NCBI GenBank assembly: GCA_964016885.1
Contig: OZ024743.1
Span: 201,686,001-201,750,000 of the forward strand
Direction: 5' to 3'
DNA length: 64,000 bases
From: Eledone cirrhosa
Taxonomy: Eukaryota
The notes beneath the pieces were generated by a model that was given only the letters and a program-made list of their open reading frames with translations, was not told where the DNA came from and made no database searches. This document shows, one piece after another, positions 10,094-39,832 of this stretch. Position 1 is the stretch's first letter; every line of letters starts with the position of its first letter. The position numbers and the translations under genes were made by a program.

Positions 10094-11892
10094 TTAGTGA
10101 TGGATATGTGTGGGGGGAGGGGGAAGTCGTAGGCTAAAGGAATAAGGGTGGGGAGTTCAGGCCGGGGGGAGTGTGGGTCTGTAGGGTGAAGATGGTTCGT
10201 TGTTCGACCCTGAGGAGAGTGGCGGGTGTTCCGTGGCATTGGAGTAGGCCACAGACTGTGAGGTGGTGTGCGGAATGTCCAGGGGCACCAAAGTGGCGGG
10301 CGATGGGGGAACTACCACCGAGACGAATATCTCGGAGGTGTTCAGTAAACCTGTCCGCCAGGCGACGTCCAGTCTGTCCGACGTAAGTCGCGCTGCACTC
10401 CGTGCAGCGATATCCGTTGACTAGGTTGGAGGAGGTGCAGCAGAAGGCATGCCGGACAGAGAGAGAGTGGCCGTTGGGACCCTGGAAGGTGGTGGTGTTG
10501 GTGATGTGGGGACAGGTGTTGCAGCGGGGCCTGGAACAGGGAAGGGAACCGGGGGAGGGAAGGAGAGCGTGGGTTGGAGGGTAAGGAGCTATGGACGAGG
10601 AGGGTGCGGAGATTGCGTGCGCGTTTGAAGGAGGGGAGTGGTGGGGCTGGGAAGATGTGGGAGGTGGAGGGGTCGGACTGGAGGCGGAGGAAGAGGCGGA
10701 GGATGGTGCGGTGGAGGGGTATGGTGGAGGGGTGGTAGGTGATGGGGAAGGGGGAAACGGTGGGTGGGTGTGCGGTGGCGTGGGGTGAGGGTGGTGGAGC
10801 GGTGGACAGTACGGGCGCGGGTGAGAGCTGTGTGGACGAGAGAGTGGGGTAACCGCTGCGGATGAAATGGCTGACTAGGGAAAGGGCCTGGGACTCAAAG
10901 TCAGCATCTCGGCTACAGAGGCGGCGGATCCTGAGGAGTTGGGAGTAGGGAATAGAGTGTTTAGTGTGTGTGGGGTGGGAAGAGGTGAAGTCGAGGTAAG
11001 AGTGGGAGTCTGTGGGTTTGAAGAAGGCGGAGGTGACGAGGGAGTGGTGGGAGGGGTCGAAGGCGACGGAGATGTCTAAGAAGTGGACGTGGGTGGTGGA
11101 GATAGAGGTGGTGAAGTGGAGGGAGGGGTGGAAGGAGCAGAAGGAGAGAAAGGAGTCGAGCTGTTCTCCGGTGAAAGTCGTGGCTCCGATACAGTCGTCG
11201 ATGTAACGACCGTACAGTTCTGGCGTGGGGCCGGTGTACTGGGCTAAGATTTGGGCCTCAACACCGCCCACAAAAATGTTGGCATAGTTTGGGCCCATTC
11301 TTGTACCCATGGCTACCCCCGTGACCTGTTGGTAAAACTCACCCGAGAAGGAGAAACAGTTGAGGTGAGGGCCAGCTCGGCGAGGCGAAGGAGGGTGGGG
11401 GTGGAGGGGATGGGGGAGGGGCGAAGGTCGAGGTAGTGCTTGAGGGCACGTAGGCCGTCGGCGTGGGGAAAGACGGTATAGAGGGACTTGATGTCTAGGG
11501 TGAAGAGGAAGGGCTGTGGGCCGGGTGGGAAGGTGAAGGAGTCGAAAAGGCGCAGGGCGTGGTTGGTGTCGGAGATGTGGTAGAGGAGGGTGGTGACAAG
11601 GGGGGCGAGGATGGAGTCAAGAAAGTCGGAGATGAGTTCGGTGGGGTAGTTGCAAGTGGAGACGATGGGGCGGCCGGGTTTGTCGGGTTTGTGGAGTTTG
11701 GGGAGGAAGTAGATGGTGGGGGTGCGAGGGGTGCGGACGTCGAGGTGGGAAGCGGTGGGGGTGGAGGAGACAAGGTGTTGGATGGTGGAGGAAACTTGTT
11801 GTTGGTAGAGGGGTGTGGGATCGGAGGGTAGAGGGCGGCAGAAGAGGGGGTTACGGAGCTGCCTGAGGGCTTCGGCCGTGTAGAGGTCCGCG
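10094..11892 (-). pseudogene. Frameshifted PLE RT-GIY-YIG polyprotein
   Basis: YFLPKLHK..PGRPIVS, TLDIKSLYT, MGTRMGPNYANIF, RYIDD, HFLDI, KPTDSHSYL, linker CSRPRCNTC, endonuclease YVGQTGRRLADRFTEH...PGLN. Confidence 0.92.
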
Positions 11893-11999
11893 ATATATAT
11901 ATATATGTGTGTGTGGAAAAGAATGAAACGAAATTTCATTTCTTACTGCTTTACTTTTTTCTTTACACTTATTCGCTTTTCTTCACTCTCAGTATTTTT

Positions 12000-16934: not shown

Positions 16935-17856
16935 AGTTTGAAGACTAAAATGCAAAGAGGGCTCGATAAGGATAAATATATATCAAATATATAAGAACCG
17001 TAGGGCAAATATTTATTAAAAGTAGGAATCGGGTTGATTGCCCCCTATCCGGGAAATGCCTCTCTAGTAACATTGTCTACAAATGTAAGGTTGAAACACC
17101 CACGTCACGTAGGGCCTACATTGGGTTAACCGCCAATAGATTCAAGCAGCGTCTTTACATGCATACCCATTCTTTTCGTTACCCTCTAAGAAGGAATATG
17201 ACGTCACTTTCAGCTTATATCTGTAGTCTAAAAGACAACCACACCCAATATAAGTTACACTGGGAGATCCTAGCTGGGGCTAGATCGTATAACGGAAATA
17301 AAAGACCATGTGACCTCTGCGCCGCTGAGGCCCTGGAAATATTCTACGCCACAGACATCATCATAAACAAACAATCTGAGGCAATTTCGGCTTGTAAACA
17401 TAAATTGCACAAAACTTTCCTGTATTACAGCCCACATTATACCCTAACGGAGAGTACGATCTATACGTGGATGTTTTACGTCTTGATGTGGTAGCTAAGT
17501 ATATGTTATGTTTATACCTTTACTTATTTGCATAGGTAAGTATATATTACCTGTATGTTTTGTGAAAGTACGTATACTTTCTCGTACGTATATTCGATTG
17601 TATATGTTATGGCGTATATTTTTATATATTCTGGTACATATGGTTTGGTTATGTGTATACGGGAGTTTTGCGTCTGTGTGAGTATGCAGGTTCGTACGTA
17701 TGTAGGGTGTGTGTATATGTGTACTTCATGTTTTGGTTGACATACGTATCCGAACATTTGTGTATTTACATGTAGGTATGTGTGTGCGCTTGTTATATAC
17801 GTATTTATTTATTTATATACGTTTATTTATTTATTTATTTATTTTTTTATTTGTAT

Positions 17857-18687: not shown

Positions 18688-19058
18688 GCTTCAAAACAAA
18701 ACAGAAGCTTTTATAAGACAATGATATTGTTGTTGAAAAAAACAATTAATCGGAAGTTAGTGCCAAGTTCTATTTCGCAGGAAGGAAATGTGGGTTATTC
18801 TGACAAAAGGTATGACGTAATAAAGTATTTAGGCATATGTATATACACAAACAAATAGACACAGCCATGCACATACAGGCACATGCACACGCAAACTCGA
18901 AATTATACACATAATTTTATTTAATATATGTAGATTGTGTGTGTATGTGTGTGCATGTATGTGTATGTATGTGTATGTATGTGTATGTGTGTGAAAGGCA
19001 ACCTCTCTTTGTTTCTATCACGTTATAAGTGGGCGAAGAAGAAGAATATATATATAAA

Positions 19059-19152
<94 letters not shown>

Positions 19153-19179
19153 TTTATATATATATTCTTCTTCTTCGCC

Positions 19180-19658
19180 CATCTGTTTTTGTAAGTGTAT
19201 ATGTATGAATTTGGGTAGATGGGTGTCTATATAGTTTTTTTGGTATTTATTTCTAGATATAAAAATACATATATGAGCATGTAAATATGAATGTAAGATT
19301 GAGTGTGTATATATGATTGTACATACATGTGTATGTATATGTATGTATATATATGTATTATATATGTACGTGTATGTGAATGTGTGGTATATATATGTGT
19401 AGGTATATGTATATATGTGTGCGTATGTGTATGCTTGTATATAGGAATATATATATGTGTGTATGTATGTATATATGTATATGCGTGTTTGCATGTATGT
19501 GTATATGGGTTGTGTATATATTTGTATGTCTCTCTATTTATATGTTTATCTTCGTATCTATGTGATATATGTGTGTGTGTGTGCATGTATGCATATGTAT
19601 GTGTTTGTGTGTGTTTGTATGTGTGTGTGTATATATATGTATGTATTTGCGCACACTC

Positions 19659-19695
<37 letters not shown>

Positions 19696-19782
19696 AGTAT
19701 GTATGTGTGTCTGTATGTGTGTGCGTGTGTATATATGTGTATATATATATATATGTGTATGTATGTGTATGTGTGTGTATAT

Positions 19783-19826
<44 letters not shown>

Positions 19827-19965
19827 ATATAGGTGTCTATGTGTGAATATATGTCTTTATTCGTATGTGTGTATTTATATATGTTTATATTTAGGTGTAT
19901 GTATGTATGTGTATGTATGTATGTATATGTATGTGTATGTATGTATATGTGTATATGTGTGTATA

Positions 19966-20002
<37 letters not shown>

Positions 20003-20222
20003 CTTTATTATTATTGTAATATAACTTATGTGTATATGTGTATAAGTGAGGTTGTGTATGTATATATATTATGTGTATATATAAGGGTAATGAAATGTAT
20101 ATATATATGTATATATATATATGTGCATGTCTGTATTTTATGTGTGTGTGTATATATATATATATGTGTATGTGTGTATATATGTGTGTATATATGCATA
20201 TATGTGTACGTGTGTGTATGTT

Positions 20223-20253
<31 letters not shown>

Positions 20254-20383
20254 GTATATATATACATCTGGATGTTTGTATGTGTTTTCATGGTGGTATG
20301 AGTGTGGGATATATATATGTTTATGTATAAGTATATGTATGTGTATGTATATATATATGAGTCTATGTGTGTGTGTGTATATA

Positions 20384-20424
<41 letters not shown>

Positions 20425-21539
20425 ATGTGTGTATGTGTTGCGCGTGTGTGTGTCCGTATTTTTATCTTTTTATATGTGTATGTGTATGTTCGTGTAAATG
20501 TATGTGTGTGTATGACAGTATAGGTATGTGTGTATATATGTATGTGTAGATATCTCTATGTGCGCGTACATGTACGTATGTGTATGTATATCTGTATGCG
20601 TATTTACATTATATTATATGTAATATATTTTATTGTTTTTATTTTTTTATTTTTCATAATTTATAGATACATTTATATTAGGCTGTCTGTCTGACAACCT
20701 AATACTGACCCCTCCCCCCCCCCTCCCACCTAATTTCTGTATCTTGATCTTGAAATGTGTGTACCAGTGTGTTTATGTGAGTGACTTAATTTCTATTTGC
20801 TTATGATTTTATATCCACATATATAAATGTGAGTGGGGGGTGTGTGTGTGTTTGTGTGTTCGTGGTTATGTGTATATTTATATATATACGCACATGTATG
20901 TGTGATTATACTGATATGTGTGAGTATGAAAAAAATATATTTATATGCTTGACTACATAAGTATCATTGCGTTTCTTATCAGCGCATTAAGCTTACAGTG
21001 ATATTAACCTTGAAATTTTTTATTTGCATCCATCTTTTTAGTATGCACATACATATTATACACACATTATTGTAAAATGTGTGTAGGGTTTTACATGTAT
21101 ATACACACACCAAACTGCTTTTTAACCCTTTGTGTTTTCATTGGTCAATTTTGAACTGATATTTTGAATTGTTGTTATTATCAATAAATATACTTCATTA
21201 TTTCTGAAGACGGCGTATATATGTGTTAGGTATGTATATTTAATCTTGATAATTTGTATAATTTTGTATAATTTTGTACATAGATCTGTTAAATATGCAT
21301 ACCAATTATAGCACATGTATGCCCTAGAAACGATCGTTAAATAGTGAACTTTTTTTGTTTAATATAAGGAATTGTTTGTTCATTATTTGTTTAATATTTT
21401 ATCTTGACTCTGTATACCGTTTATCTTTCACCGAAATTGGATTTTCATTACATCTCTTCTTTCCATGATATCCGGAATACATTGAGTTCTTCATACGGAT
21501 TGGACACTACCGTAAACTCTTGGTAGATTTATCTACATA
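19180..21539 (+). repeat. 5' pseudo-LTR (2.36 kb, mostly TA/TG microsatellite-like)
   Basis: Near-identical to 25349-27709 (offset ~6170). Confidence 0.95.
21194..21348 (+). ncRNA. Type I hammerhead, family G, with ~115-nt stem II
   Basis: TTCATTATTT-CTGAAGA-[GGCGTATATATGTGTTA/TAGCACATGTATGCC; GGTATGTATATTTAA/TTAAATATGCATACC]-GAAA-CGATCG-TT-AAATAGTGAA; 10-bp stem I. Confidence 0.87.
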
Positions 21540-21670
21540 ATTTTGCTCCTATTTTCACGGAAATATTCGTATTTTTGTACTGTATGTGTGTATTAATTTT
21601 ATATTTATGTATATACATATATATATGTATGATTTTGTAAACCCATATACATTTAGTTGAGCTCTTTCAA

Positions 21671-24133
21671 TTGTCCATCATCCATATCACAATGGAAAAA
21701 CAATATTTAGGAACCTCCTTAAAAAACATACCAATACCTTCTAAGGACGACTTCTTACTCCTTATGATTCAGAAAACTAATAATTTTATCAGAAGGGTTA
21801 GATGGAGAGCCTACCACTTTGATAGAAAATCTAAACAAGCAGATCGGAAATATATGTATGATTTCAACACTTACAAGAATCCACCACACAACTTTTTACT
21901 TGAAGACTTCGAGAAAGACCTTTTTAATTTAATTAAACATCTCAAATTTAAAAAGTATAAATCCGTCTTTCAAAAGGACCTTGATTCTACCCTATTGGAC
22001 CTAAAAAAGTCTAAAAAAATCCATGTCCACTCGGACAAAACTGGTAACTTGTATCATATGGATATTGAACATTATAATGAGTTCATATATAAAGAACTCA
22101 GAAAAAGTTATAAAAAATCTAATAATGCGTCACTCACCAATATCAACAACAAAACACACAACATAGTAAAAAAACTAAATATTGAAGATAGAACTGAACC
22201 TTTGGCATTGAGAAGTCCACACTTCAACCTGAAAGATCACAAATCTAACTTTAACTCTAATCCTTCTATTAGACTTATATGTCCCTCCAAATCAGATATT
22301 GGAATAATTAGCAAAAAAATTTTAGATAGAGTCATCCCACAAATAAGAAAATACGTTATTTTACCACTCTGGGAAAACACCTCCCAGGTAATTAATTGGT
22401 TTAAAAATATTAGGTGTAAATCTTCTGCTTCTTTCCTACAGTTTGATATAGATAACTATTATTCTTCTATATCACCCATACTCCTGAACAAAGCATTAAT
22501 ATTTGCTAAAAATAGATCTAATTTAACTTCGGATGACATTAACATTATTACACATGCTAGACAAACACTTATTGAATTTCAGAATGAATACTGGACCAGA
22601 AACACTTATAGTAATCTTTTTGATATTACTATGGGTTCAAGCGATTCTGCCCAAATTACTGATCTTGTGGGCCTCTTTCTCCTTTTCAACATAAATGCCT
22701 CTTTTCCCCACCTCAAAGGTGGTTTATATCGTGATGACTGTCTTCTTCTTTCTAACAACCTTAGCCTTTCAGAAATCGAAAAAAACAAAAAGCATATTAG
22801 AACTTTCCTTAAGGACTATTATAATCTTAATATTACTTTTGAAAAAACAAGTAAAGTAGTAAATTTCCTAGATATAACTTTAGATTTAGCTACGGGTATA
22901 TACCAACCTTACCATAAACCTAACCAAAACTTACATTACATACACTCACAATCTAATCACCCTAAATCTATCCTTAAAAACCTTGCATATAATATATCAC
23001 TTAGAATTTCTAACCTTTCTTCTAACCAAGATGTATTTGATAAAAATGCGACCTTTTATAATGAAGCTCTAGATAGAAGTGGCCACAAAAATAGATTAGA
23101 GTATATAACTTCTACTAAAAATACTGAAAACATACAGCATAATATTACCAACAAACACCAAATGAAAGGTACACACCTAAATGCCACCCACAGTATACCC
23201 CAAAATACTAAATCTTCTAATATAAAGTATAGTAACCCTCAAAAAACTACTCATCATAAGACTATAATAAATATTAATAATAAAACTCCTAATAAAAAAG
23301 ATAAAACACCTAAATCTACAAATATAACTAAAAATAGTTGTGGTGAGATCATTAACATTATTCCTCCTAGTAAAAATCATGATACAACATATAAAAATAA
23401 TAAAAATAATAAACAACATAGAAACCGTAATAGACGAGTTACTTGGTATAATGCTCCTTTTAATTTACAAGTTAAGGATAATATTGCTAAAAAATTTTTT
23501 TATATCCTTGAGAAAAACTTCCCGCCAAACCACAAATACCATCAAATCTTAAATAGGTCTACAGTTAAATTCTCATATTCTACAACAAATAACATAAAAC
23601 AAAATATAAGTGCATATAATGCATATAAATGTAAGAAAACTATAAGTATACCACCAGTACATCAAATTAACAATAATATCTCCTCAAATACAGAATTAAC
23701 GAAAGGATGTAACTGTAGAAACAAAACAAACTGCCCATTAAAAGGGAATTGTCTTGTTAACAACATAGTCTATAAATGTAATGTTAAAACTAAAGATTCT
23801 ATTTGCTCATATATAGGAGCTACCTCTAACAATTTTAAGACAAGGTATAATACCCACAAACATAGCTTTAAAAATGCCGCACTGGCTAATACAACATCTC
23901 TAGCAGAAAAAATCAATAGTTATAAAAATAAAAATATAAAATATGATTTGACCTGGAGTGTGCTCAAAAGAGCCACCCCTTATCAAAATAATAGAAAGGA
24001 ATGTAGATTATGTTCCCAAGAACTATTTGAAATAATGAAGTCTAGGGATATCTTATTAAATAAAAGACAGGAATTAATTATATCGTGTAATCATAAACTA
24101 AAAAAAACATTTAAATATTATAAACCTAATTAA
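21671..24133 (+). CDS. Naiad-type PLE polyprotein: reverse transcriptase + GIY-YIG endonuclease (first ATG at 21692)
   Basis: N-terminal SLKNIP, DKTGN, LKDHK..RLICPSKSDIG, QFDIDNYY, ITMGS, GLYRDD, NFLDI, SNHP, WYNAPF, CNCR..CPLKGNC..IVY..YIG..FKTRY..H, CRLC..E, LNKR.E...C.H; no internal stops. Confidence 0.95.
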   Translation: MSIIHITMEKQYLGTSLKNIPIPSKDDFLLLMIQKTNNFIRRVRWRAYHFDRKSKQADRKYMYDFNTYKNPPHNFLLEDFEKDLFNLIKHLKFKKYKSVFQKDLDSTLLDLKKSKKIHVHSDKTGNLYHMDIEHYNEFIYKELRKSYKKSNNASLTNINNKTHNIVKKLNIEDRTEPLALRSPHFNLKDHKSNFNSNPSIRLICPSKSDIGIISKKILDRVIPQIRKYVILPLWENTSQVINWFKNIRCKSSASFLQFDIDNYYSSISPILLNKALIFAKNRSNLTSDDINIITHARQTLIEFQNEYWTRNTYSNLFDITMGSSDSAQITDLVGLFLLFNINASFPHLKGGLYRDDCLLLSNNLSLSEIEKNKKHIRTFLKDYYNLNITFEKTSKVVNFLDITLDLATGIYQPYHKPNQNLHYIHSQSNHPKSILKNLAYNISLRISNLSSNQDVFDKNATFYNEALDRSGHKNRLEYITSTKNTENIQHNITNKHQMKGTHLNATHSIPQNTKSSNIKYSNPQKTTHHKTIININNKTPNKKDKTPKSTNITKNSCGEIINIIPPSKNHDTTYKNNKNNKQHRNRNRRVTWYNAPFNLQVKDNIAKKFFYILEKNFPPNHKYHQILNRSTVKFSYSTTNNIKQNISAYNAYKCKKTISIPPVHQINNNISSNTELTKGCNCRNKTNCPLKGNCLVNNIVYKCNVKTKDSICSYIGATSNNFKTRYNTHKHSFKNAALANTTSLAEKINSYKNKNIKYDLTWSVLKRATPYQNNRKECRLCSQELFEIMKSRDILLNKRQELIISCNHKLKKTFKYYKPN

Positions 24134-25348
24134 TAACATTATTCTAGAATTTAATTTAATTTAAATGTTAGTTAACCTATAAATTTGATTTAAATTAATT
24201 TAATTAATATTTTATTACAGATGAGAAAATATTATGTAATCATTAATTTTGAAAAACCTTTAAATATTACTAATATATATTCAGTAATTTAATTTATAGA
24301 TTAATTTTAACTTATTTTAACCTTTTATTATAATTTTTTAATTTAGTTTAACCTTTTATTATAAAATTTTTTTTATTATAATTCTTTTACAGATAAAATA
24401 TAACAAAATAATATCATGTATCCTATGACGGAGAAAGAATTTTTAGTATTATTGACCTAATTAATATACATTTTGGAAATATATTTATTATTTGGTTTTA
24501 GCTTTAATCAACCTAAAACTTTAATTTTAATTTTAATTTGCTTAAAATTAGTATCCTTGTACAGACGAATTGCAGAATTTCATGTAATCATAGAATGGGA
24601 GGTGTTTTTGATATATACCTAGTTAATATATTCTGTGCAAATTTTTTGAAAAAGATATGTATATCTATATGTATATGTATATGTGTGTATTGTATGTGTA
24701 TCTGTATGTATATTTATGTGACTATATATGTATGTATGTGTGTATATATATGTATATATATATATATATATATGTGTATGTATATGTATATGTATGTGTA
24801 TGTGTATGTATATGTATGTGTATGCGTATTAATTTTGATTTTTATTTGCATATAATTATATTATGCTATTGATGAAATACAATATCTGCTTTATGTATTG
24901 TATACCTAATTAACATATACTAATTAACATATACTATTGAAATAAATATATAATTTTTAACTTAGTTAACATATAATTTATATGCTACTACCGATGTAAT
25001 ACTTTATTTTATTTTTATTTGGGTTTCTTTTCCCTATTATTAACTTTAATTTAGTTATAATGTAATTAATAATCTACTACTGTTTGACTTCATAATTCTG
25101 CTTCAAATATTATAAACCTAACTAATTTACACCTTGGAAATCAATATGTTGACTATCTTTGGTTTAGTTGACATATGATTAATGGTATACTTTTTTATTT
25201 TGTGATGCATAGATTTCGTATTTCCTAGCATTGAAAATATGTAAGAACATACATTGAATTAAGATATGGAAAATATTATAGGTTTCTTGAAACATATATT
25301 TACTTTGATCCCCTTCTCCAAACCCCCCCCTTTCCCCCATACTATTAT

Positions 25349-25827
25349 CATCTGTTTTTGTAAGTGTATATGTATGAATTTGGGTAGATGGGTGTCTATA
25401 TAGTTTTTTTGGTATTTATTTCTAGATATAAAAATACATATATGAGCATGTAAATATGAATGTAAGATTGAGTGTGTATATATGATTGTACATACATGTG
25501 TATGTATATGTATGTATATATATGTATTATATATGTACGTGTATGTGAATGTGTGGTATATATATGTGTAGGTATATGTATATATGTGTGCGTATGTGTA
25601 TGCTTGTATATAGGAATATATATATGTGTGTATGTATGTATATATGTATATGCGTGTTTGCATGTATGTGTATATGGGTTGTGTATATATTTGTATGTCT
25701 CTCTATTTATATGTTTATCTTCGTATCTATGTGATATATGTGTGTGTGTGTGCATGTATGCATATGTATGTGTTTGTGTGTGTTTGTATGTGTGTGTGTA
25801 TATATATGTATGTATTTGCGCACACTC

Positions 25828-25864
<37 letters not shown>

Positions 25865-25951
25865 AGTATGTATGTGTGTCTGTATGTGTGTGCGTGTGTA
25901 TATATGTGTATATATATATATATGTGTATGTATGTGTATGTGTGTGTATAT

Positions 25952-25995
<44 letters not shown>

Positions 25996-26134
25996 ATATA
26001 GGTGTCTATGTGTGAATATATGTCTTTATTCGTATGTGTGTATTTATATATGTTTATATTTAGGTGTATGTATGTATGTGTATGTATGTATGTATATGTA
26101 TGTGTATGTATGTATATGTGTATATGTGTGTATA

Positions 26135-26171
<37 letters not shown>

Positions 26172-26391
26172 CTTTATTATTATTGTAATATAACTTATGT
26201 GTATATGTGTATAAGTGAGGTTGTGTATGTATATATATTATGTGTATATATAAGGGTAATGAAATGTATATATATATGTATATATATATATGTGCATGTC
26301 TGTATTTTATGTGTGTGTGTATATATATATATATGTGTATGTGTGTATATATGTGTGTATATATGCATATATGTGTACGTGTGTGTATGTT

Positions 26392-26422
<31 letters not shown>

Positions 26423-26550
26423 GTATATATATACATCTGGATGTTTGTATGTGTTTTCATGGTGGTATGAGTGTGGGATATATATGTTTATGTATAAGTA
26501 TATGTATGTGTATGTATATATATATGAGTCTATGTGTGTGTGTGTATATA

Positions 26551-26593
<43 letters not shown>

Positions 26594-27709
26594 ATGTGTG
26601 TATGTGTTGCGCGTGTGTGTGTCCGTATTTTTATCTTTTTATATGTGTATGTGTATGTTCGTGTAAATGTATGTGTGTGTATGACAGTATAGGTATGTGT
26701 GTATGTATGTATGTGTAGATATCTCTATGTGCGCGTACATGTACGTATGTGTATGTATATCTGTATGCGTATGTACATTATATTATATGTAATATATTTT
26801 ATTGTTTTTATTTTTTTTATTTTTCATAATTTATAGATACATTTATATTAGGCTGTCTGTCTGACAACCTAATACTGACCCCTCCCCCCCCCCTCCCACC
26901 TAATTTCTGTATCTTGATCTTGAAATGTGTGTACCAGTGTGTTTATGTGAGTGACTTAATTTCTATTTGCTTATGATTTTATATCCACATATATAAATGT
27001 GAGTGGGGGGTGTGTGTGTGTTTGTGTGTTCGTGGTTATGTGTATATTTATATATATACGCACATGTATGTGTGATTATACTGATATGTGTGAGTATGAA
27101 AAAAATATATTTATATGCTTGACTACATAAGTATCATTGCGTTTCTTATCAGCGCATTAAGCTTACAGTGATATTAACCTTGAAATTTTTTATTTGCATC
27201 CATCTTTTTAGTATGCACATACATATTATACACACATTATTGTAAAATGTGTGTAGGGTTTTACATGTATATACACACACCAAACTGCTTTTTAACCCTT
27301 TGTGTTTTCATTGGTCAATTTTGAACTGATATTTTGAATTGTTGTTATTATCAATAAATATACTTCATTATTTCTGAAGACGGCGTATATATGTGTTAGG
27401 TATGTATATTTAATCTTGATAATTTGTATAATTTTGTATAATTTTGTACATAGATCTGTTAAATATGCATACCAATTATAGCACATGTATGCCCTAGAAA
27501 CGATCGTTAAATAGTGAACTTTTTTTGTTTAATATAAGGAATTGTTTGTTCATTATTTGTTTAATATTTTATCTTGACTCTGTATACCGTTTATCTTTCA
27601 CCGAAATTGGATTTTCATTACATCTCTTCTTTCCATGATATCCGGAATACATTGAGTTCTTCATACGGATTGGACACTACCGTAAACTCTTGGTAGATTT
27701 ATCTACATA
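25349..27709 (+). repeat. 3' pseudo-LTR copy
   Basis: Direct repeat of 19180-21539. Confidence 0.95.
27364..27518 (+). ncRNA. Type I hammerhead, family G, second copy
   Basis: Same sequence as 21194-21348. Confidence 0.87.
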
Positions 27710-30617: not shown

Positions 30618-32155
30618 AAGTAGGACCCCGACGGCTGAGCTCAAGCCGTTTCGACGGCTAATTCTCGACTAAATGAACATTTTTATCCTGGTAAATGAAT
30701 AGCCGAACTTCTCAGGGGGTAATTCCATATATGGTAAAAGTGATTGTCACAAGGATTGGTCAAAAGTTTGTTGTTGAGACACATAATTCTATCATGGTAT
30801 TTTGTGGAAGGTATGAGTAGCTGCACTTGCCAGTAGAAGAAAGAGGGAGAGGGAGTGGAGGAAACCCAGTCGAGTTTGAAAGTGACAACTACAGCAGATT
30901 CTAAGGATAGAGGGTCGAAAAAAGTATACTAGAGAAGGGGAGGGGGAAGAAGTCGAAACAATAAGTAAATCTATATGGAGTAAATAAATAGAAAAATATA
31001 AAAAATATAAAAAATATAAAAAAACAACAATATCTGGTTACTATTCCCCTACCACAATCATCAAATCTCTCACTGTTACTGCTAAGCTATAGAAAAGTTT
31101 AATAGGTGGGGCGGAATACTAAATACGAGATTGTAGTGAAAGAATTTTATGAATTAGTAGTAATCGGCCAAATCTATCTTACAATGACAGGTCAAAAAGT
31201 AGGGGGCCAAAATACTAAAAAAACTAATACGAAATAATAATTCAGAGTCCCGAAACTAATACGAAATATTAATTCAGAATCCCGAAACATCAATACTAAT
31301 ACGATATATATAAGTACTGCTTAATTTTTCGTATTAGTTTTTCATATATATTGTACGAGCAATTTTGTAGATTGGATTAGAATTTATGTATTGTAGCAGT
31401 ACTTTTATATATATCGTATTAGTATTCATGTTTCGGGTTTCTGAATTAATATTTCGTATTAGTTTTTTTAGTATTTTGGCCCCTACTTGTTGACCTGTCA
31501 TTGTAAGATAGATTTGGCCGATTACTACTAACTCAAAATTCTTTCACTACAATCTCGTATTTAGTATTCCGCCCCACCTATTAAACTTTTCTATAGCTTA
31601 GCAGTACCAGTGAGAGATTTGATGATTGTGGAAGAGGAATAGTAACCAGAATTTTTTTTTTTTTATATTTTTTATATTTTTTATATTTTTCTATATATTT
31701 ACTCCATATAGATTTCCTTATTGTTTCGACTTCCTCCCCCCTCCCTTTCTCTAGTATACTTTTTTCGACCTTCTATCCTTAGAAAACTGCTGTAGTTGTC
31801 ACTTTCAACGCTCGACTGGGTTTCCTCCACTCCCTCTCCCTCTTTCTTCTACTGGCAAGTTCAGCTACTCATACCTTCCACAAAATGCCATGATAGAATC
31901 ATGTGTCTCAACAACAAACTTTTGACCAATCCTTGTGACAATCACTTTTACCATATATGGAATTACCCCCTGAGAAGTTCGGGTATTCATTTACCAGGAT
32001 AAAAATGTTCATTTAGTCCAGAATTAGCCGTCGAGACGGCTTGAGCTCAGCCGTAGTGGTCCTACTTGTTCCTTTTACCCACTCTACTACCCTAAGTATT
32101 GAGTACTTTGGTGCGTTATGGTCTATCTGGTTCCTTACCACATTTCCTTCGTTTT
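30615..32155. mobile_element. Large inverted pLTR pair of family E (~700-bp arms) between (TA)n tracts
   Basis: 30615-~31320 is the reverse complement of ~31400-32070, with scattered substitutions. Confidence 0.88.
30625..30720 (-). ncRNA. Variant hammerhead, family E, core CUGAGAA; decayed plus-strand copy at 31965-32060
   Basis: ACCCC-CTGAGAA-GTTCGGCT...AGCCGTC-GAAA-CGGCT tgagctc AGCCG-TC-GGGGT. Confidence 0.65.
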
Positions 32156-32419: not shown

Positions 32420-32704
32420 ATTATATATATATATAGAGAGAGAGCTTAAAAGTGACCAGCTGCAACATGTATATATCTATAACTTTATGTATATGTTAAC
32501 TTTTATATTTAATAATCTCCCAATAGGTTGAGATTAAATTTGGCGATATTTGGCTGCGCTTTCTAGCAGCAAGCCTACCCGCCGTAAGCAACCAATCATA
32601 TTCTTTCTCTCTGGCTTGACCAAAGCCACATAGTGATTCTTAGCCATTTTTGAATCTATTTTTGGCGGGATCGGACTGAAAAACTAGATGTCTGATTTTG
32701 AGTT

Positions 32705-32783
32705 TGTCTCCTGATGAATCCTAACTCAGGACATTCCTATTATTTGGATGTCTAAAAATAAGGAAGAAACCATGGTAGAGATA
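32705..32783 (+). ncRNA. Type I hammerhead, family H, copy 1
   Basis: TGTCTC-CTGATGA-[ATCCT..GGACATTCC/GGATGTCT..AGGAA]-GAAA-CCATGG-TA-GAGATA. Confidence 0.85.
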
Positions 32784-33369
32784 TAATTACGGTATGTGCG
32801 CATTTCTTCTAAGTTTAATTTTACACCTAATTGTGTATGGTTGATGGTATATTTAGTCAGTTTCTACATGCTGTCGAAATGTTGGATAAATACTCGATTG
32901 GGGGCCGCCGTGAAGAGGCTACGTTCGGTTATTTGCCGGAGATTTCTCCATAAGAGCGTTTATTCTTATAGCATGTTCTAATTGATTTTTTATATGGTTA
33001 ATTATGCTAATTAGAAGAAGAAATAGTATATATTTTAATATCTGATGATTCTAAAGACATGATTTATGATATAGTGCTCTGATTTTTTAATTTATTAATT
33101 CTTCATAGAGCTTAAAAGTGACCAGTTGCAACATGTATATATCTATAACTTTATGTATATGTTAACTTTTATATTTAATAATCTCCCAATAGGTTGAGAT
33201 TAAATTTGGCGATATTGGCTGCGCTTTCTAGCAGCAAGCCTACCCGCCGTAAGCAACCAATCACATTCTTTCTCTCTGGCTTGACCAAAGCCACATAGTG
33301 ATTCTTAGCCATTTTTGAATCTATTTTTGGCGGGATCGGATTGAAAAACTAGATGTCTGATTTTGAGTT

Positions 33370-33448
33370 TGTCTCCTGATGAATCCTAACTCAGGACATT
33401 CCTATTATTTGGATGTCTAAATATAAGGAAGAAACCATGGTAGAGATA
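33370..33448 (+). ncRNA. Type I hammerhead, family H, copy 2
   Basis: As 32705-32783. Confidence 0.85.
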
Positions 33449-34034
33449 TAATTACGGTATGTGCGCATTTCTTCTAAGTTTAATTTTACACCTAATTGTG
33501 TATGGTTGATGGTATATTTAGTCAGTTTCTACATGCTGTCGAAATGTTGGATAAATACTCGATTGGGGGCCGCCGTGAAGAGGCTACGTTCGGTTATTTG
33601 CCGGAGATTTCTCCATAAGAGCGTTTATTCTTATAGCATGTTCTAATTGATTATTTATATGGTTAATTATGCTAATTAGAAGAAGAAATAGTATATATTT
33701 TAATATCTGATGATTCTAAAGACATGATTTATGATATAGTGCTCTGATTTTTTAATTTATTAATTCTTCATAGAGCTTAAAAGTGACCAGTTGCAACATG
33801 TATATATCTATAACTTTATGTATATGTTAACTTTTATATTTAATAATCTCCCAATAGGTTGAGATTAAATTTGGCGATATTGGCTGCGCTTTCTAGCAGC
33901 AAGCCTACCCGCCGTAAGCAACCAATCACATTCTTTCTCTCTGGCTTGACCAAAGCCACATAGTGATTCTTAGCCATTTTTGAATCTATTTTTGGCGGGA
34001 TCGGATTGAAAAACTAGATGTCTGATTTTGAGTT

Positions 34035-34113
34035 TGTCTCCTGATGAATCCTAACTCAGGACATTCCTATTATTTGGATGTCTAAATATAAGGAAGAAAC
34101 CATGGTAGAGATA
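34035..34113 (+). ncRNA. Type I hammerhead, family H, copy 3
   Basis: As 32705-32783. Confidence 0.85.
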
Positions 34114-34395
34114 TAATTACGGTATGTGCGCATTTCTTCTAAGTTTAATTTTACACCTAATTGTGTATGGTTGATGTTATATTTAGTCAGTTTCTACATG
34201 CTGTCGAAATGTTGGATAAATACTCGATTGGGGCCGCCGCGAAGAGGCAGCGTTCGGTTATTTGTCGGAGATTTCTCCATAAGACCGTTTATTCTTATAG
34301 CTTTTTCTAATTGATTTTTTATATGGTTAATTATGCTAATTAGAAGAAGAAATAGTATATATTTTAATATCTGATGATTCTAAAGACATGATTTA

Positions 34396-34452
<57 letters not shown>

Positions 34453-34456
<4 letters not shown>

Positions 34457-36784
34457 ATGATAATTCCCAATACTATAATCAGGCATTAGCTAAATCAGGC
34501 CATAAAAATGGGATTGAATTCCTACCTATAAAATCACATAGTTACAGTATTATTTCTCACAATATGGCCATGAGGAAAAATAATAAGAGTACTAGCCACT
34601 CTTTCTCTAATACGAAGGGTTATATCAAACTTAACTCGCACCAAGGTAAACAAAACAATAATATTATAAACAGAAATACCTCAATAGATATTACAAAAAA
34701 ACAAAAATAGAAGAAATAATACATTCTTCAATCCCCCTTTCAATCTAAACGTCTCTACCAACTTACCTAAGGCTTTCTTCTCAATCCTATAAAAAACTTC
34801 CCATCTGGCCACAAATACCATAATCTTATAAATAAAAACACCATTAAAATCTCTTACTCTACCACACCTAACATACCATACCATATAACTAGTAGTAATA
34901 AAAGGAAGATTAATAATTATTTCCAACTAATTAAAAGACAGCAGGAGGTAAACTTACAGAACAACATAATAACTACAAACCCTAGTAGCAATAGTAATAA
35001 TAGTAATAACACTAATGAAATCAATAACAATAGGAACGACAACCATCATTACCCTAATGCTATCCATAACAACCAGACTTCTACACAACACAATAAGCGG
35101 CAAGATAACATCCAAAATAAATGTAACTGTAGACCAAATAAAACTTGCCCATTAAGTAATAATTGCTTAATCAAAGACATCATTTACTCCTGCACGGTCA
35201 ACACAAACAACTCTTCTAAAACATATATTGGCTCTACTTCGAACTGCTTCAAGACGAGATACAACTCGCACCTCCACTCTTTCAAAAAACACAATATAGC
35301 CAACTCCACTTCACTATCTAGTTACATACACTCTCTGAAAACTAGGAATAGAACATATAGACTTCAATGGGAAGTAGTAAGTAGGGCTGCATCGTATAAA
35401 CCACCGAATACATTTTGTAACCTCTGTCTTCTAGAGACCTATACTATAATCTTTTCGAAACTAAACCTCCTAAATAAAAAGTCAGAGATGTTTTCTTCGT
35501 GCCAACACCACTACCGACACTCATTCGATAGCTTTAAACCTAGCTGCTAGTATATAACAATGTCAGATTTGAATTCATCACCACCATTAACACTTCACCT
35601 CTAAGACTTTTCTTCCCCCACAGCATCAGACTCTTTGATCTGCTCTTTCCTCTACACAAATGCTATTTATCTCTAACATTATACTCTAGAAATAAACATC
35701 TAGTCACCACCTTATAATATAAATACTTGAGATTACTTATAATATATACAGTAATTAAAATATAATATAATATGTATAGACATTAAATATAATTAAATGT
35801 ATAAATTAATAACATTGTTTATAAAGGATTAATTTATTAACATAAGGGCTGTATCTAATTTAACATATAAACAGCTATACATTACTCCATATCTTGCCTA
35901 CTATTGGGTAGATGACAATCTAATAAAACATTTAATATATTATGAGAGAGTAGACTGTATTTAAAATTAAATATAAATATATAACATTTTGTATAAGGGA
36001 TTCAATTGTGGCACTATATAATGTCTATTAGATCAAAGAATTTTAACATTATAATGAGCTAGTTACCTCCCTTACGCATTAGCTCCCCTTAATTCCATAT
36101 CCACTTCCGGATATTAAACCATTGAAAAATCTCGCTGTAGAACAACTCTAATCCATGAATATGAATACAATAATACTAAGTTACTATAACTAACAAAAAC
36201 ATTCAATACAAACATTAACTAAAATATAACTTAACATATGTAATGGATGGGAAATCTCTAACTTTCATATTCTACACACATACATATTTGAACTATACAG
36301 AAACTATCCTCGCATTACATCCTCCATAATATACTAACATATTCGCTTAAAGTGCTTGTATTTTATGTAATACTTTGCCATACAGTACTCATATATGCCT
36401 AATACCTTTGCCTGTTTCCTTCCCATATATATGACTAACGCATGTACAATCTCTACACGCTTCCTCAATGCCTCTTTAATTATTAGACTATTCTCTTGTA
36501 TTATCTGTCGCATGTATTCCTCTCTGTGCTTTTAATTTTAATCTTAATTTGAATTATTGTACAATTGTATAATATATGTCGCATCCATTACACCCTGTAT
36601 ATACTAAACTGTTGTTCACTTCACAAGATCAATATATATGTATCTATATGATGGTTCAGTTGAATAGGAGGTTAATTATATGTACAAACATTGATAATGC
36701 TCCGATGACCCCAAACTAAAGTTTGGAAGAAACAATAGTCAGCGATTAAATGATTTGAACATAACTTTGATACTTGTGTATTTT
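34453..36784 (+). mobile_element. 5'-truncated, frameshifted Naiad-type PLE (not in the ORF track) with 3' hammerhead
   Basis: Hand translation of 34470-35550: LAKSGHK, FFNPPFNLNVSTN, FPSGHKYHNLINKNTIKISYS, CNCRPNKTCPLSNNCLIKDIIY, YIGSTSNCFKTRYNSH, CNLCLLE, LLNKKSEMFSSCQH; (TA)n at both ends. Confidence 0.87.
36698..36744 (+). ncRNA. Hammerhead, family I, core CCGAUGA
   Basis: TGCT-CCGATGA-cc CCAAACT aa AGTTTGG aa-GAAA-CAATAG-TC-AGCG. Confidence 0.68.
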
Positions 36785-36876
36785 ATATATATATATATAA
36801 CGAAGGAAATGTGGTAAGGAACCAGGTGGACCATAACGCACCAAAGTACTCAATACTTAGGGTAGTAGAGTGGGTA

Positions 36877-37939: not shown

Positions 37940-39832
37940 GGGCTAGTATCAAAACTACCCTAAAGGGCCACATATTCAAGTTCAACGAGAAGATCTACAC
38001 CTAAAATGAGGGAGCAGCCATTGGCGTCAGCATAGCTGGTGATGTTGCCAACCTTTTTATGGTATGGTGGGAAAGGAGACTTAAAGATCTCATTCATGGG
38101 AGCTCCATAGGCCCCATCATGTACTCTCGTTACGTAGACGATATCAATATAGTTATAAGAACATCCCCACTAGAACGTAGCACAATGGAAAGCATCCAGC
38201 AGATAGCTAATTCCATACACCAGAGTATAACTGTAACTATCGACTACCCTTCCAAACACCCTAACAATAGACTACCTGTATTAGACACAGAACTCTGGAT
38301 TAACACTATAGACGAGAGAGCCCAAATTCTCCACTCACACTATGCTAAACCCATGGCCTCCAAATACCTGATACTCAAAAACTCAGCAATGTCCAGTAGT
38401 GCTAAGTTTAATATTCTGATCGCAGATTTCGTACGAGTGATGAAGAATGTGTCCCGCATGTGCGACCCAACAGAAATGGAAAGACACATCCAACACTTCA
38501 TCAACCGCATGCAGTTCTCGGGCTACAACCAAAGAGACAGAGTCAGAGTATACAAAGGAGCCATGGAGAAGTATAAGACCCTCATAGAACTGGACATGAA
38601 AGGAATTTGCCCATTATACAGGAGCAAATCATGGAATAGCTTAGATAGGGCTAGACATAAGATAGGGAAAGCCACCTCATGGTACGACAACCAGAGATAC
38701 CCGAGTGTCATGTTTGTGGACGCTACCCCTGGAGGGAAATTAGCTAACCAGTGTAGAAAGGCCCTGAGAAAGACCCACTTAAAGATTAAGGTGGTAGAAA
38801 AGCCAGGAACCACCATAAAATCCCTGATCAACAAAACCTACCTTTTTAAGAAAACCCACTGTACTAATAGGAAATGTATCATATGTAAGGTAAACCCCCG
38901 GATAAACTGTAAAACTAGAAGCGTAGTCTATAGCATAAGATGTACAGAGGGTACTTGCAGAAACATGACAACAACATACATAGACGAGACAGCTCGTAGC
39001 ATAGGTGAAAGGATAGACCAACACTGGGGGGAACTAAAAGGACGAAAAAACGGGTCAGTACTATACAAACATGCCAGACAACAACACGACGGTAACATAG
39101 ACAACATAGAAATTAGAATAATATCTAAACATAGAAATGACCCAGCAGATAGGCAAATCAGAGAGGCCAGTGAAATAGAACTTAGAAGGCCAAGACTAAA
39201 CAGAAAGAATGAATGGAATAACAACAACACCCAAACAAACAACACTGACCTAAGAGAAGTATAAATAAATAAATAAATAAATAGATAAATAAATAAATAA
39301 ATACATACACAAGCACAATAACAACAAACACATATAAACACACACTAGTAAAGATAGAATACATTAACCAATCACGAACACACATCAAACAAAGCACTAT
39401 ACACACACGCAAACGCATGCGCAAAGAAGACAAAATAAAATAAACAAACAAACAAATAAATAAATAAGTATATAAACAGACTAAATAAAGATGGCGTAGA
39501 CATACAATGTAACGGGAGGAAACAATAGCACCACTGACGATGTTGCAGATGTGCAACGAAAGAACTTTGATAAACTACTGTATATATATGTGTTTGTGTC
39601 TATATTGTATCTGTATTATTTTTGGTCAGTCAATGGCAACATTGAGGACCGAATAAATTAGATTACCGATATAAAAGACACAGAAGCGAAAAGCGAAAAC
39701 CAACCAAACAGTGAGTGTGTTCTGTTATTAATTCTGGCAATATTACACAAATATGACCCTCCCCAAGTATAACAATATTTGTTTCGACACACGATTTCTT
39801 ATAAAAAACCTCGCAAAACTAATTCATCGCCG

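Follow-up and report, generated by a model that had tools for sequence, protein, structure and literature searches.

Organization of the locus

The 64,000-nucleotide window of Eledone cirrhosa contig OZ024743.1 (positions 201,686,001 to 201,750,000) contains a Penelope-like element (PLE) at 19180–27709. The element encodes one open reading frame (ORF) followed by a 3′ untranslated region (UTR) rich in microsatellite-like sequence, and it carries a direct repeat (19180–21539 and 25349–27709; 2360 and 2361 nt) with a hammerhead ribozyme in each copy (Table 1). Alignment of the two repeats reveals two substitutions and three indels of 2, 2 and 1 nt. The resulting identity of 99.8% confirms the few substitutions and 1–2 bp slips described in an earlier note on this DNA, and the 3′ end of the element lies on (TA)n, as that note had also stated. 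At the left target junction, the end of the target likely folded back, copied its own flank and joined the element over a 2-nt CA overlap.

The repeat had been taken for a defined 2.36-kb pseudo-long terminal repeat (pLTR). Across the loci fetched, the upstream repeat measures from less than 100 bp to several whole units. Because this length varies between copies, 2.36 kb marks the stopping point of the second turn in the window copy. The "2.36-kb pLTR" thus represents the second turn of a 6.17-kb unit (6170 nt; range 6.05–6.7 kb), truncated at random, and the fixed terminal part of the element is 343 bp (27367–27709). Assembly duplication as the source of the repeat was rejected at the family level, with at least 41 near-full ORF matches, many in the same tandem arrangement. 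The identity of the repeats across simple sequence would suit such an artefact, but 307 exact tail-to-body junctions genome-wide, truncation points that differ by locus, and the presence of the element and its limit at 27367 in public sequencing runs reduce its probability to almost nothing.

Table 1. Features of the element in window coordinates
Feature	Position	Strand	Remarks
Left target junction, a perfect palindrome with (TA)n at its centre	19030..19181	.	overlaps the element by 2 nt (CA)
Second turn of the unit, 5′-truncated (5′ pLTR of the earlier note)	19180..21539	+	length peculiar to the window copy
First hammerhead	21197..21348	+	initiator-like A (21197), core CUGAAGA, 116-nt stem II, GAAA, predicted cut 21338/9, stem I 3′ strand
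813-aa ORF	21692..24133	+	ATG 21692, stop 24133; KNIP 11, RWR 37, DKT 115, QFD 250, YRDD 346
3.2-kb 3′ UTR/spacer	24134..27366	+	in all sampled copies spanning it
Short TA/TG tract in 3′ UTR	24654..24831	+	–
Main microsatellite-like segment	25471..26797	+	T 48%, A 27%, G 21%, C 4%; holds nine of the ten (TA)6+ tracts in the unit
AATAAA, candidate poly(A) signal	27353..27358	+	9 nt before initiator-like A; kept in 67%-identical sister family
TTCA(27367)TTATTT, initiator-like site and stem I 5′ strand	27364..27373	+	sharp 5′ limit of first-turn arms
Second hammerhead	27374..27518	+	predicted cut 27508/9
S end (mostly 27572)	27567..27575	+	putative upstream reverse-transcription start site; joined to (TA)n; 64 nt past ribozyme cut
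Tail, 137 nt, ending in L end (27705–27709)	27573..27709	+	putative downstream start site; joined to (TA)n; 201 nt past cut

Protein motifs and clade

The ORF is uninterrupted, as first reported, although its length is 813 residues from the ATG and 830 from stop to stop rather than 820. In addition to the N-terminal motifs listed in Table 1, its C-terminal half contains CxCx5C at 673 (CNCRNKTNC), VY..YIG at 692–709 (YIG at 707), CxxC at 771 (CRLC) and CxH at 799 (CNH). The motifs are common to homologues (117 found, 16 of them compared), among which RWK and RWR alternate at the position of RWR 37. A Pfam search of the ORF returned zero matches. The protein model has a pLDDT of 86.5, an N/K/T-rich disordered linker at residues 478–572 and, as its best fold match, telomerase reverse transcriptase (TERT).

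The earlier note took the element for a Naiad, describing Naiads as PLEs with KNIP and CxC motifs. Naiads have an N-terminal endonuclease, a CxC motif between endonuclease and reverse transcriptase (RT), DKA and an IFD, and they lack a hammerhead (PMC8557442). In the ORF, YRDD 346 precedes YIG 707, which places the GIY-YIG domain C-terminal to the RT. The sole CxC, at 673, follows the RT and belongs to CxCx5C, residue 115 begins a DKT rather than a DKA motif, and the D252–M314 spacing of 62 residues (61 in Hydra-2_Amil) accommodates no IFD. KNIP itself is present in the Hydra proteins of PMC8557442 and is absent from the main text of that paper. Hydra elements combine a C-terminal endonuclease with RWK, DKT, CxCx5C, and CxxC and CxH flanking conserved E and N residues, lack CCHH, carry a canonical hammerhead, target (TA)n and are "generally short", complete families measuring 2084–2729 bp (PMC8557442). 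The window element has a single ORF with RT and C-terminal GIY-YIG, an RWK-type motif, DKT, the CxCx5C linker, CxxC and CxH, a hammerhead and (TA)n flanks. Its 6170-nt unit exceeds the Hydra-typical length of less than 3 kb, which is typical but not diagnostic. The C-terminal GIY-YIG, the hammerhead and the RWR, DKT and CxCx5C motifs identify the element, at the motif level, as a Hydra-clade PLE and not a Naiad.

Copy number and age

In a first look at the genome (40 of 4203 candidates scored), at least 41 ORF matches near full length were found at 99–100% identity, and at least 91 RT copies are at least 99% identical. Intact ORFs were found in 41 of 44 full-length cases, taken from fetched stretches that were largely picked for high score, with a pN/pS of 0.17–0.22. 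Exact genome counts, which overlook older copies, gave 3052 hammerhead-core 23-mers, 1560 of these sequences with upstream sequence, and 389 matches of a 20-mer from the microsatellite segment. Contigs of public sequencing runs from organisms A, B and C carry the family. The earlier view of a young element is borne out, and these figures point to a recently multiplying retrotransposon that is probably active.

Short older arms (90–95% identity) occur in two of 20 sampled 10-kb stretches (L223:9490-9781 and L236:8251-8600), so short arms may number tens of thousands. The cluster L051–L054 (G000:C21:5756000-5792000) contains a young array nested in an older copy and a second young insertion, as well as two short hairpin derivatives, nearly identical to each other, that have expanded T runs and share their flank and may stem from a local duplication. 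In a more distant Hydra family (L224:975-6950; up to 53% amino acid identity), both arms of an inverted pair carry hammerheads, and the 3′ UTR measures ~1.3 kb.

Two fixed ends, one of each per insertion

Insertions were analysed in 63 stretches fetched around the loci where a 28-mer had its first 100 matches on C1, in a second sample of 20 picked for their lack of upstream sequence, and in the full-ORF loci. Terminal 3′ ends lie on (TA)n at one of two places, L (27705–27709) or S (27567–27575). A run of at least 8 nt of pure TA follows the L end in 82 of 93 cases and the S end in 75 of 88, counts in which overlapping stretches may include an end twice. In two-ended insertions, one L end is paired head to head with one S end in 81 of 81 cases (hand tally; a binomial test was run). 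Two-ended insertions were observed in 44 of the 63 stretches, in 13 of the 20 of the second sample and in 24 cases among the full-ORF loci; the remainder are one-armed or run beyond the stretch. The window copy has the L arm only.

The two arms of an insertion resemble each other more than arms of different loci do. Over the 186-nt ribozyme region, inverted arms are identical in 48 of 52 same-stretch comparisons (comparisons within one array are not independent), and the other four involve separate insertions; only 12% of arms are identical between loci. Pair mapping covered 42 pairs, with two omitted as unmapped. Among pairs whose arms reach 27380, both arms stop there in 12 and both pass in 17, with no mixed pair (p = 2e-8), and a stopped arm has an extended partner in none of 19 pairs. 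The identity of the arms and their common 5′ limit indicate that paired arms were likely copied from one RNA.

The S arm extends more than 50 nt further than the L arm in 18 pairs, by up to two units, the L arm extends further in seven, and the 5′ ends lie within 50 nt of each other in 17. These lengths bear on the proposal that one cDNA, or an antisense RNA, gives rise to inverted pairs by priming itself or folding back (PMC3846280). The identical arms, the 17 closely matched pairs with their palindromic junctions and the folded-back left flank of the window copy would all agree with fold-back. However, a folded-back copy must sit within the first arm, and only L holds the tail, so the 18 pairs with a longer S arm exclude fold-back of a single cDNA and fit an L copy that trails the S copy. 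Fold-back also leaves the second precise end, at 27572 on (TA)n, unexplained, and it is very improbable as the source of the pairs.

Hammerhead ribozymes and terminal landmarks

The presence of a hammerhead in each repeat was corroborated. Each is a type I ribozyme formed by CUGAAGA, a 116-nt stem II, GAAA, the palindrome CGAUCG, GUU and a strand that pairs with TTCATTATTT, with the cut predicted after GUU. The long stem II hairpin is more stable than its shuffles (z = −5.8); an Rfam search at the gathering score found nothing. The letters of the core are invariant in 123 distinct arms except for two single gaps, and changes in stem II between arms mostly convert G-U to A-U or G-C pairs. The site around A 27367 resembles the initiator consensus.

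Downstream of the cut, GTTCATTATTT (21378–21388 and 27548–27558) can form 11 bp with the stem I 3′ strand. The downstream strand may out-compete the 7-bp stem I of the start-site transcript and keep the ribozyme off in mRNA. A second hammerhead that would cut at 27366/7 was considered, the triplet there being UUC, and set aside on visual inspection since neither a matching core nor a matching stem III was seen. Pumilio-like TGTANATA motifs number 27, compared with 19 ± 3 in shuffles. A sister family (L228:3871-5650), 67% identical in the terminal region, retains AATAAA and has the same 5′ limit, a long stem II and both the L and the S end.

First turns, later turns and the template

First-turn arms have a sharp 5′ limit, ending exactly at A 27367 in 32 of 61 cases and within 27364–27370 in all. 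Mini-palindrome junctions at A 27367 number 986 genome-wide, and raw DNA reads of another sample contain loose ends before 27367. An extra G precedes A 27367 in eight of 50 junctions listed (hand count; two ambiguous, three with C), as a copied cap would give. We infer that A 27367 is a transcription start.

Later turns behave differently. Arms stop at 27364–27370 in 30 of 85 first turns but in none of 35 later turns (p = 6e-6); 10 more later turns end before 27364–27370. A transcript that begins at the start site and comprises one unit and the tail is therefore not the source of the long arms. One arm contains more than three near-identical units, three turns of which differ by 3–7 substitutions in 6.06 kb, compared with 128 from the window copy. 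Three of the 31 arm ends in 27381–27709 lie at 27509–27510 (p 0.001–0.004), which reads as a trace of hammerhead cleavage. The earlier note proposed that two hammerhead cuts release a unit-length RNA. This proposal gains indirect support, but a linear monomer does not suffice for long copies: with insertions beginning 64 and 201 nt past the cut, such an RNA could not template them unless it were circularised or the RT jumped. A ligated circle produced by hammerhead cleavage is probably the best-fitting template.

The same two-site priming could operate with the hammerhead as a bystander, if long arms arose by linear read-through of arrays of several units, or by template jumping from one redundant 343-nt end to another. 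Arrays of two or three units exist as sources, hammerhead mutants had no effect on Poseidon insertion in vitro (PMC11167929), and at one locus both long arms end at or beside the hammerhead cut, as would suit a linear RNA whose second ribozyme stayed uncut. Yet a linear RNA from 21197 should stop later turns at 27367, which none of the 35 do; frequent jumping should mix stopped and extended arms in pairs, which none of 19 do; and neither the arm of more than three near-identical units nor the invariant core and pair-preserving stem II changes favor a bystander. A linear source is unlikely on balance, although it is the strongest competitor of the circle.

Microsatellite segment and genome load

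The main segment makes up about 56% of the repeat, and TA/TG tracts in the 3′ UTR total about 1.5 kb. The segment belongs to the family, as the earlier note had presumed: it is present in all 108 arms covering both its sides (one contains an assembly gap). Its length differs by −94 to +587 nt between subfamilies. A search of the 3′ UTR for remnants of an older element's end brought up, among the matches listed, simple repeats alone.

That note further suggested that the element seeds its own target sites and helps to explain the microsatellite load of the genome. In twenty 10-kb stretches at round coordinates, alternating TA/TG/CA tracts occupy 8.9% of the sequence and (TA)6+ tracts number about 1190 per Mb; the segment was found in none of these 20 stretches. 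At 389–1560 carriers, the family accounts for 0.2–0.9% of alternating-tract bases and 0.1–0.4% of tracts. Four target flanks were flagged among 181 terminal ends: one lies in the internal (TA)n of an older copy and is a true insertion, one adjoins an older short pair, and two are weak cases. The self-insertion rate, one among 181 ends, is about that expected by chance. Net addition of TA at insertion was also rejected, as flanking TA runs have a median of 23–24 nt, equal to the length-weighted genomic median of 23, and the sole inferable empty site shows no gain; the nested site has about 15 + 6 flanking TA units and unoccupied homologous tracts have 17–22. Microsatellite seeding by the family is possible but marginal. 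A Naiad whose microsatellite pLTRs seed targets and explain the genome load would account for the universal presence of the segment and the one young array within an older (TA)n tract, but it is contradicted by the C-terminal endonuclease and hammerhead, the small shares of bases and tracts, and the unchanged nested site, and it is extremely improbable.

Integration model

The data are probably best explained by a Hydra PLE that inserts into (TA)n by two-site priming on one RNA, with long and tandem copies made from a hammerhead-cut circular RNA. Each two-ended insertion in (TA)n has one S end (27572) and one L end (27709). The enzyme would cut both target strands, and both broken ends would prime internally on the same RNA, at S and L, over 2–4 nt of UA or AUA; the L polymerase would trail and have to displace the S cDNA, and the two cDNA 3′ ends would be joined by microhomology. 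On transcripts from the initiator-like A (21197/27367), run-off cDNAs would measure 206 and 343 nt, giving mini-palindromes of ~550 bp. Less surely, transcripts reaching the second hammerhead would be cleaved at both ribozymes and closed by ligation into a circle of 6.17 kb; one to three turns of the RT around it would yield long arms and "pLTRs". The microsatellite segment would be passenger DNA, caught a single time between two hammerheads, that is now replicated with slippage and struck as a target only at about the chance rate.

Several points weigh against this model. The cap-like G is found in a minority of junctions. Only 3 of 31 ends map to the hammerhead cut, and ends are just as frequent at the base of stem II (4 of 31). 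Start site, cut and circle are all deduced from DNA, and a missing stop at 27367 would equally be expected if multi-unit arrays gave rise to long read-through transcripts. Paired arms could also be identical through later gene conversion or by descent from two RNAs that came from the same source locus, and some insertions, that in the window included, are one-armed. The Hydra placement is a motif-level match to reference Hydra proteins made by eye rather than on a tree. According to the available text of PMC11167929, the Poseidon protein acts in vitro without need of hammerhead cleavage and with start sites that do not differ between strands, and the Poseidon hammerhead cut was not the end of any RNA read.

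A broader proposal, offered tentatively and with somewhat less than even confidence, is that PLEs integrate by double target-primed reverse transcription, in which two active sites each handle one strand and one start site on the same RNA. The capped mRNA would then yield dead-end 550-bp palindromes, and the hammerhead-made 6-kb circle would be the true template. If this is true, the tail, the inversions and the pLTRs are explained together, and the PLE hammerhead gains a function. MITE-like 550-bp palindromes (resembling miniature inverted-repeat transposable elements) can be single retrotransposition events. The model makes base-precise predictions, namely that transcription begins at 21197, that the RNA is cut at 21338/9, that 21402 and 21539 serve as start sites, each for one strand, and that a circle of 6.17 kb is formed. 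Recent insertions of the family run into the thousands and, with their sharp landmarks and the intact ORFs, offer material for questions of PLE mechanism.

Other elements in the window

Three tandem 665-bp units lie between (TA)n tracts at 32440–34400, with a hammerhead-like CTGATGA...GAAA at 32711, 33376 and 34041; by sequence, the array is retrozyme-like. The regions 34454–36790 and 16976–17494 are 5′-truncated pieces of other Hydra-like families (CxCx5C, YIG, CxxC, CxH), the former with a 3′ UTR of about 1.2 kb without a large microsatellite. Broken RT and GIY-YIG-like ORFs of other Penelope-like types occupy 10134–11942 (−) and 38005–39264 (+). A long imperfect inverted repeat was seen by eye at 30900–31790.

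Comparison with known systems

The mechanism of tandem and inverted PLE insertions and the role of the hammerhead are stated as open questions in PMC8557442 and PMC11167929. The tail, the inversions, the internal start, the capture of a spacer and the idea of a circle have each been published singly. A literature search of available texts, outside subscription papers, Repbase and the supplements of PMC11167929, did not find the strict pairing of one site per arm with a shared 5′ limit; nor did it find, outside subscription papers and Repbase, the contrast between first and later turns or a Hydra element of such size.

The element resembles the Hydra clade (PMC8557442) in its RT and C-terminal GIY-YIG, its RWK-type, DKT, CxCx5C, CxxC and CxH motifs, the lack of an IFD, the type I hammerhead near the 3′ end, often with GUU, and (TA)n targets. 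It differs in its unit of 6.05–6.7 kb, compared with 2084–2729 bp, which more than doubles the known Hydra unit size, and in its 116-nt stem II, compared with 3–7 bp. The 3.2-kb microsatellite-laden 3′ UTR, the 137-nt tail and the 813-residue protein with a disordered linker of ~95 residues are also distinctive. Naiads (PMC8557442) share PLE membership, (TA)n bias, tandem and inverted insertions and a tail, whereas their N-terminal endonuclease, CxC before the RT, DKA, IFD and lack of a hammerhead do not hold here.

In the Poseidon element PAc of Anolis, both target strands are cut and extended in vitro, and two internal start sites bound the tail (PMC11167929). Internal start at two sites downstream of the hammerhead, with the tail between, and an AT-rich target are common to both systems. 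Here, however, the sites are 137 nt apart in the 5′ UTR, whereas those of Poseidon are adjacent and inside the ORF; one site per strand is used in 81 of 81 insertions, whereas Poseidon exhibits no strand difference in vitro; and some ends map to the ribozyme cut. Pen1_Av to Pen4_Av of Adineta (PMC3846280) likewise have a long spacer in front of the 3′ pLTR that was attributed to the capture of host DNA, as well as N-rich ORF inserts and an inverted pLTR with a tail on one side. Their spacer varies between copies but is fixed in the family here, and self-priming was invoked for their inversions, which the arm lengths here contradict. Finally, hammerhead cleavage, ligation and more-than-unit reverse transcription were proposed to give head-to-tail tandems in the PLE circular-RNA model (PMC4209133) and for non-LTR retrozymes (bioRxiv 10.64898/2026.07.22.740005), as they are here. 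In the available texts of both, the proposal came without a copy-level test, whereas the autonomous 6-kb unit described here lends it indirect genomic support.

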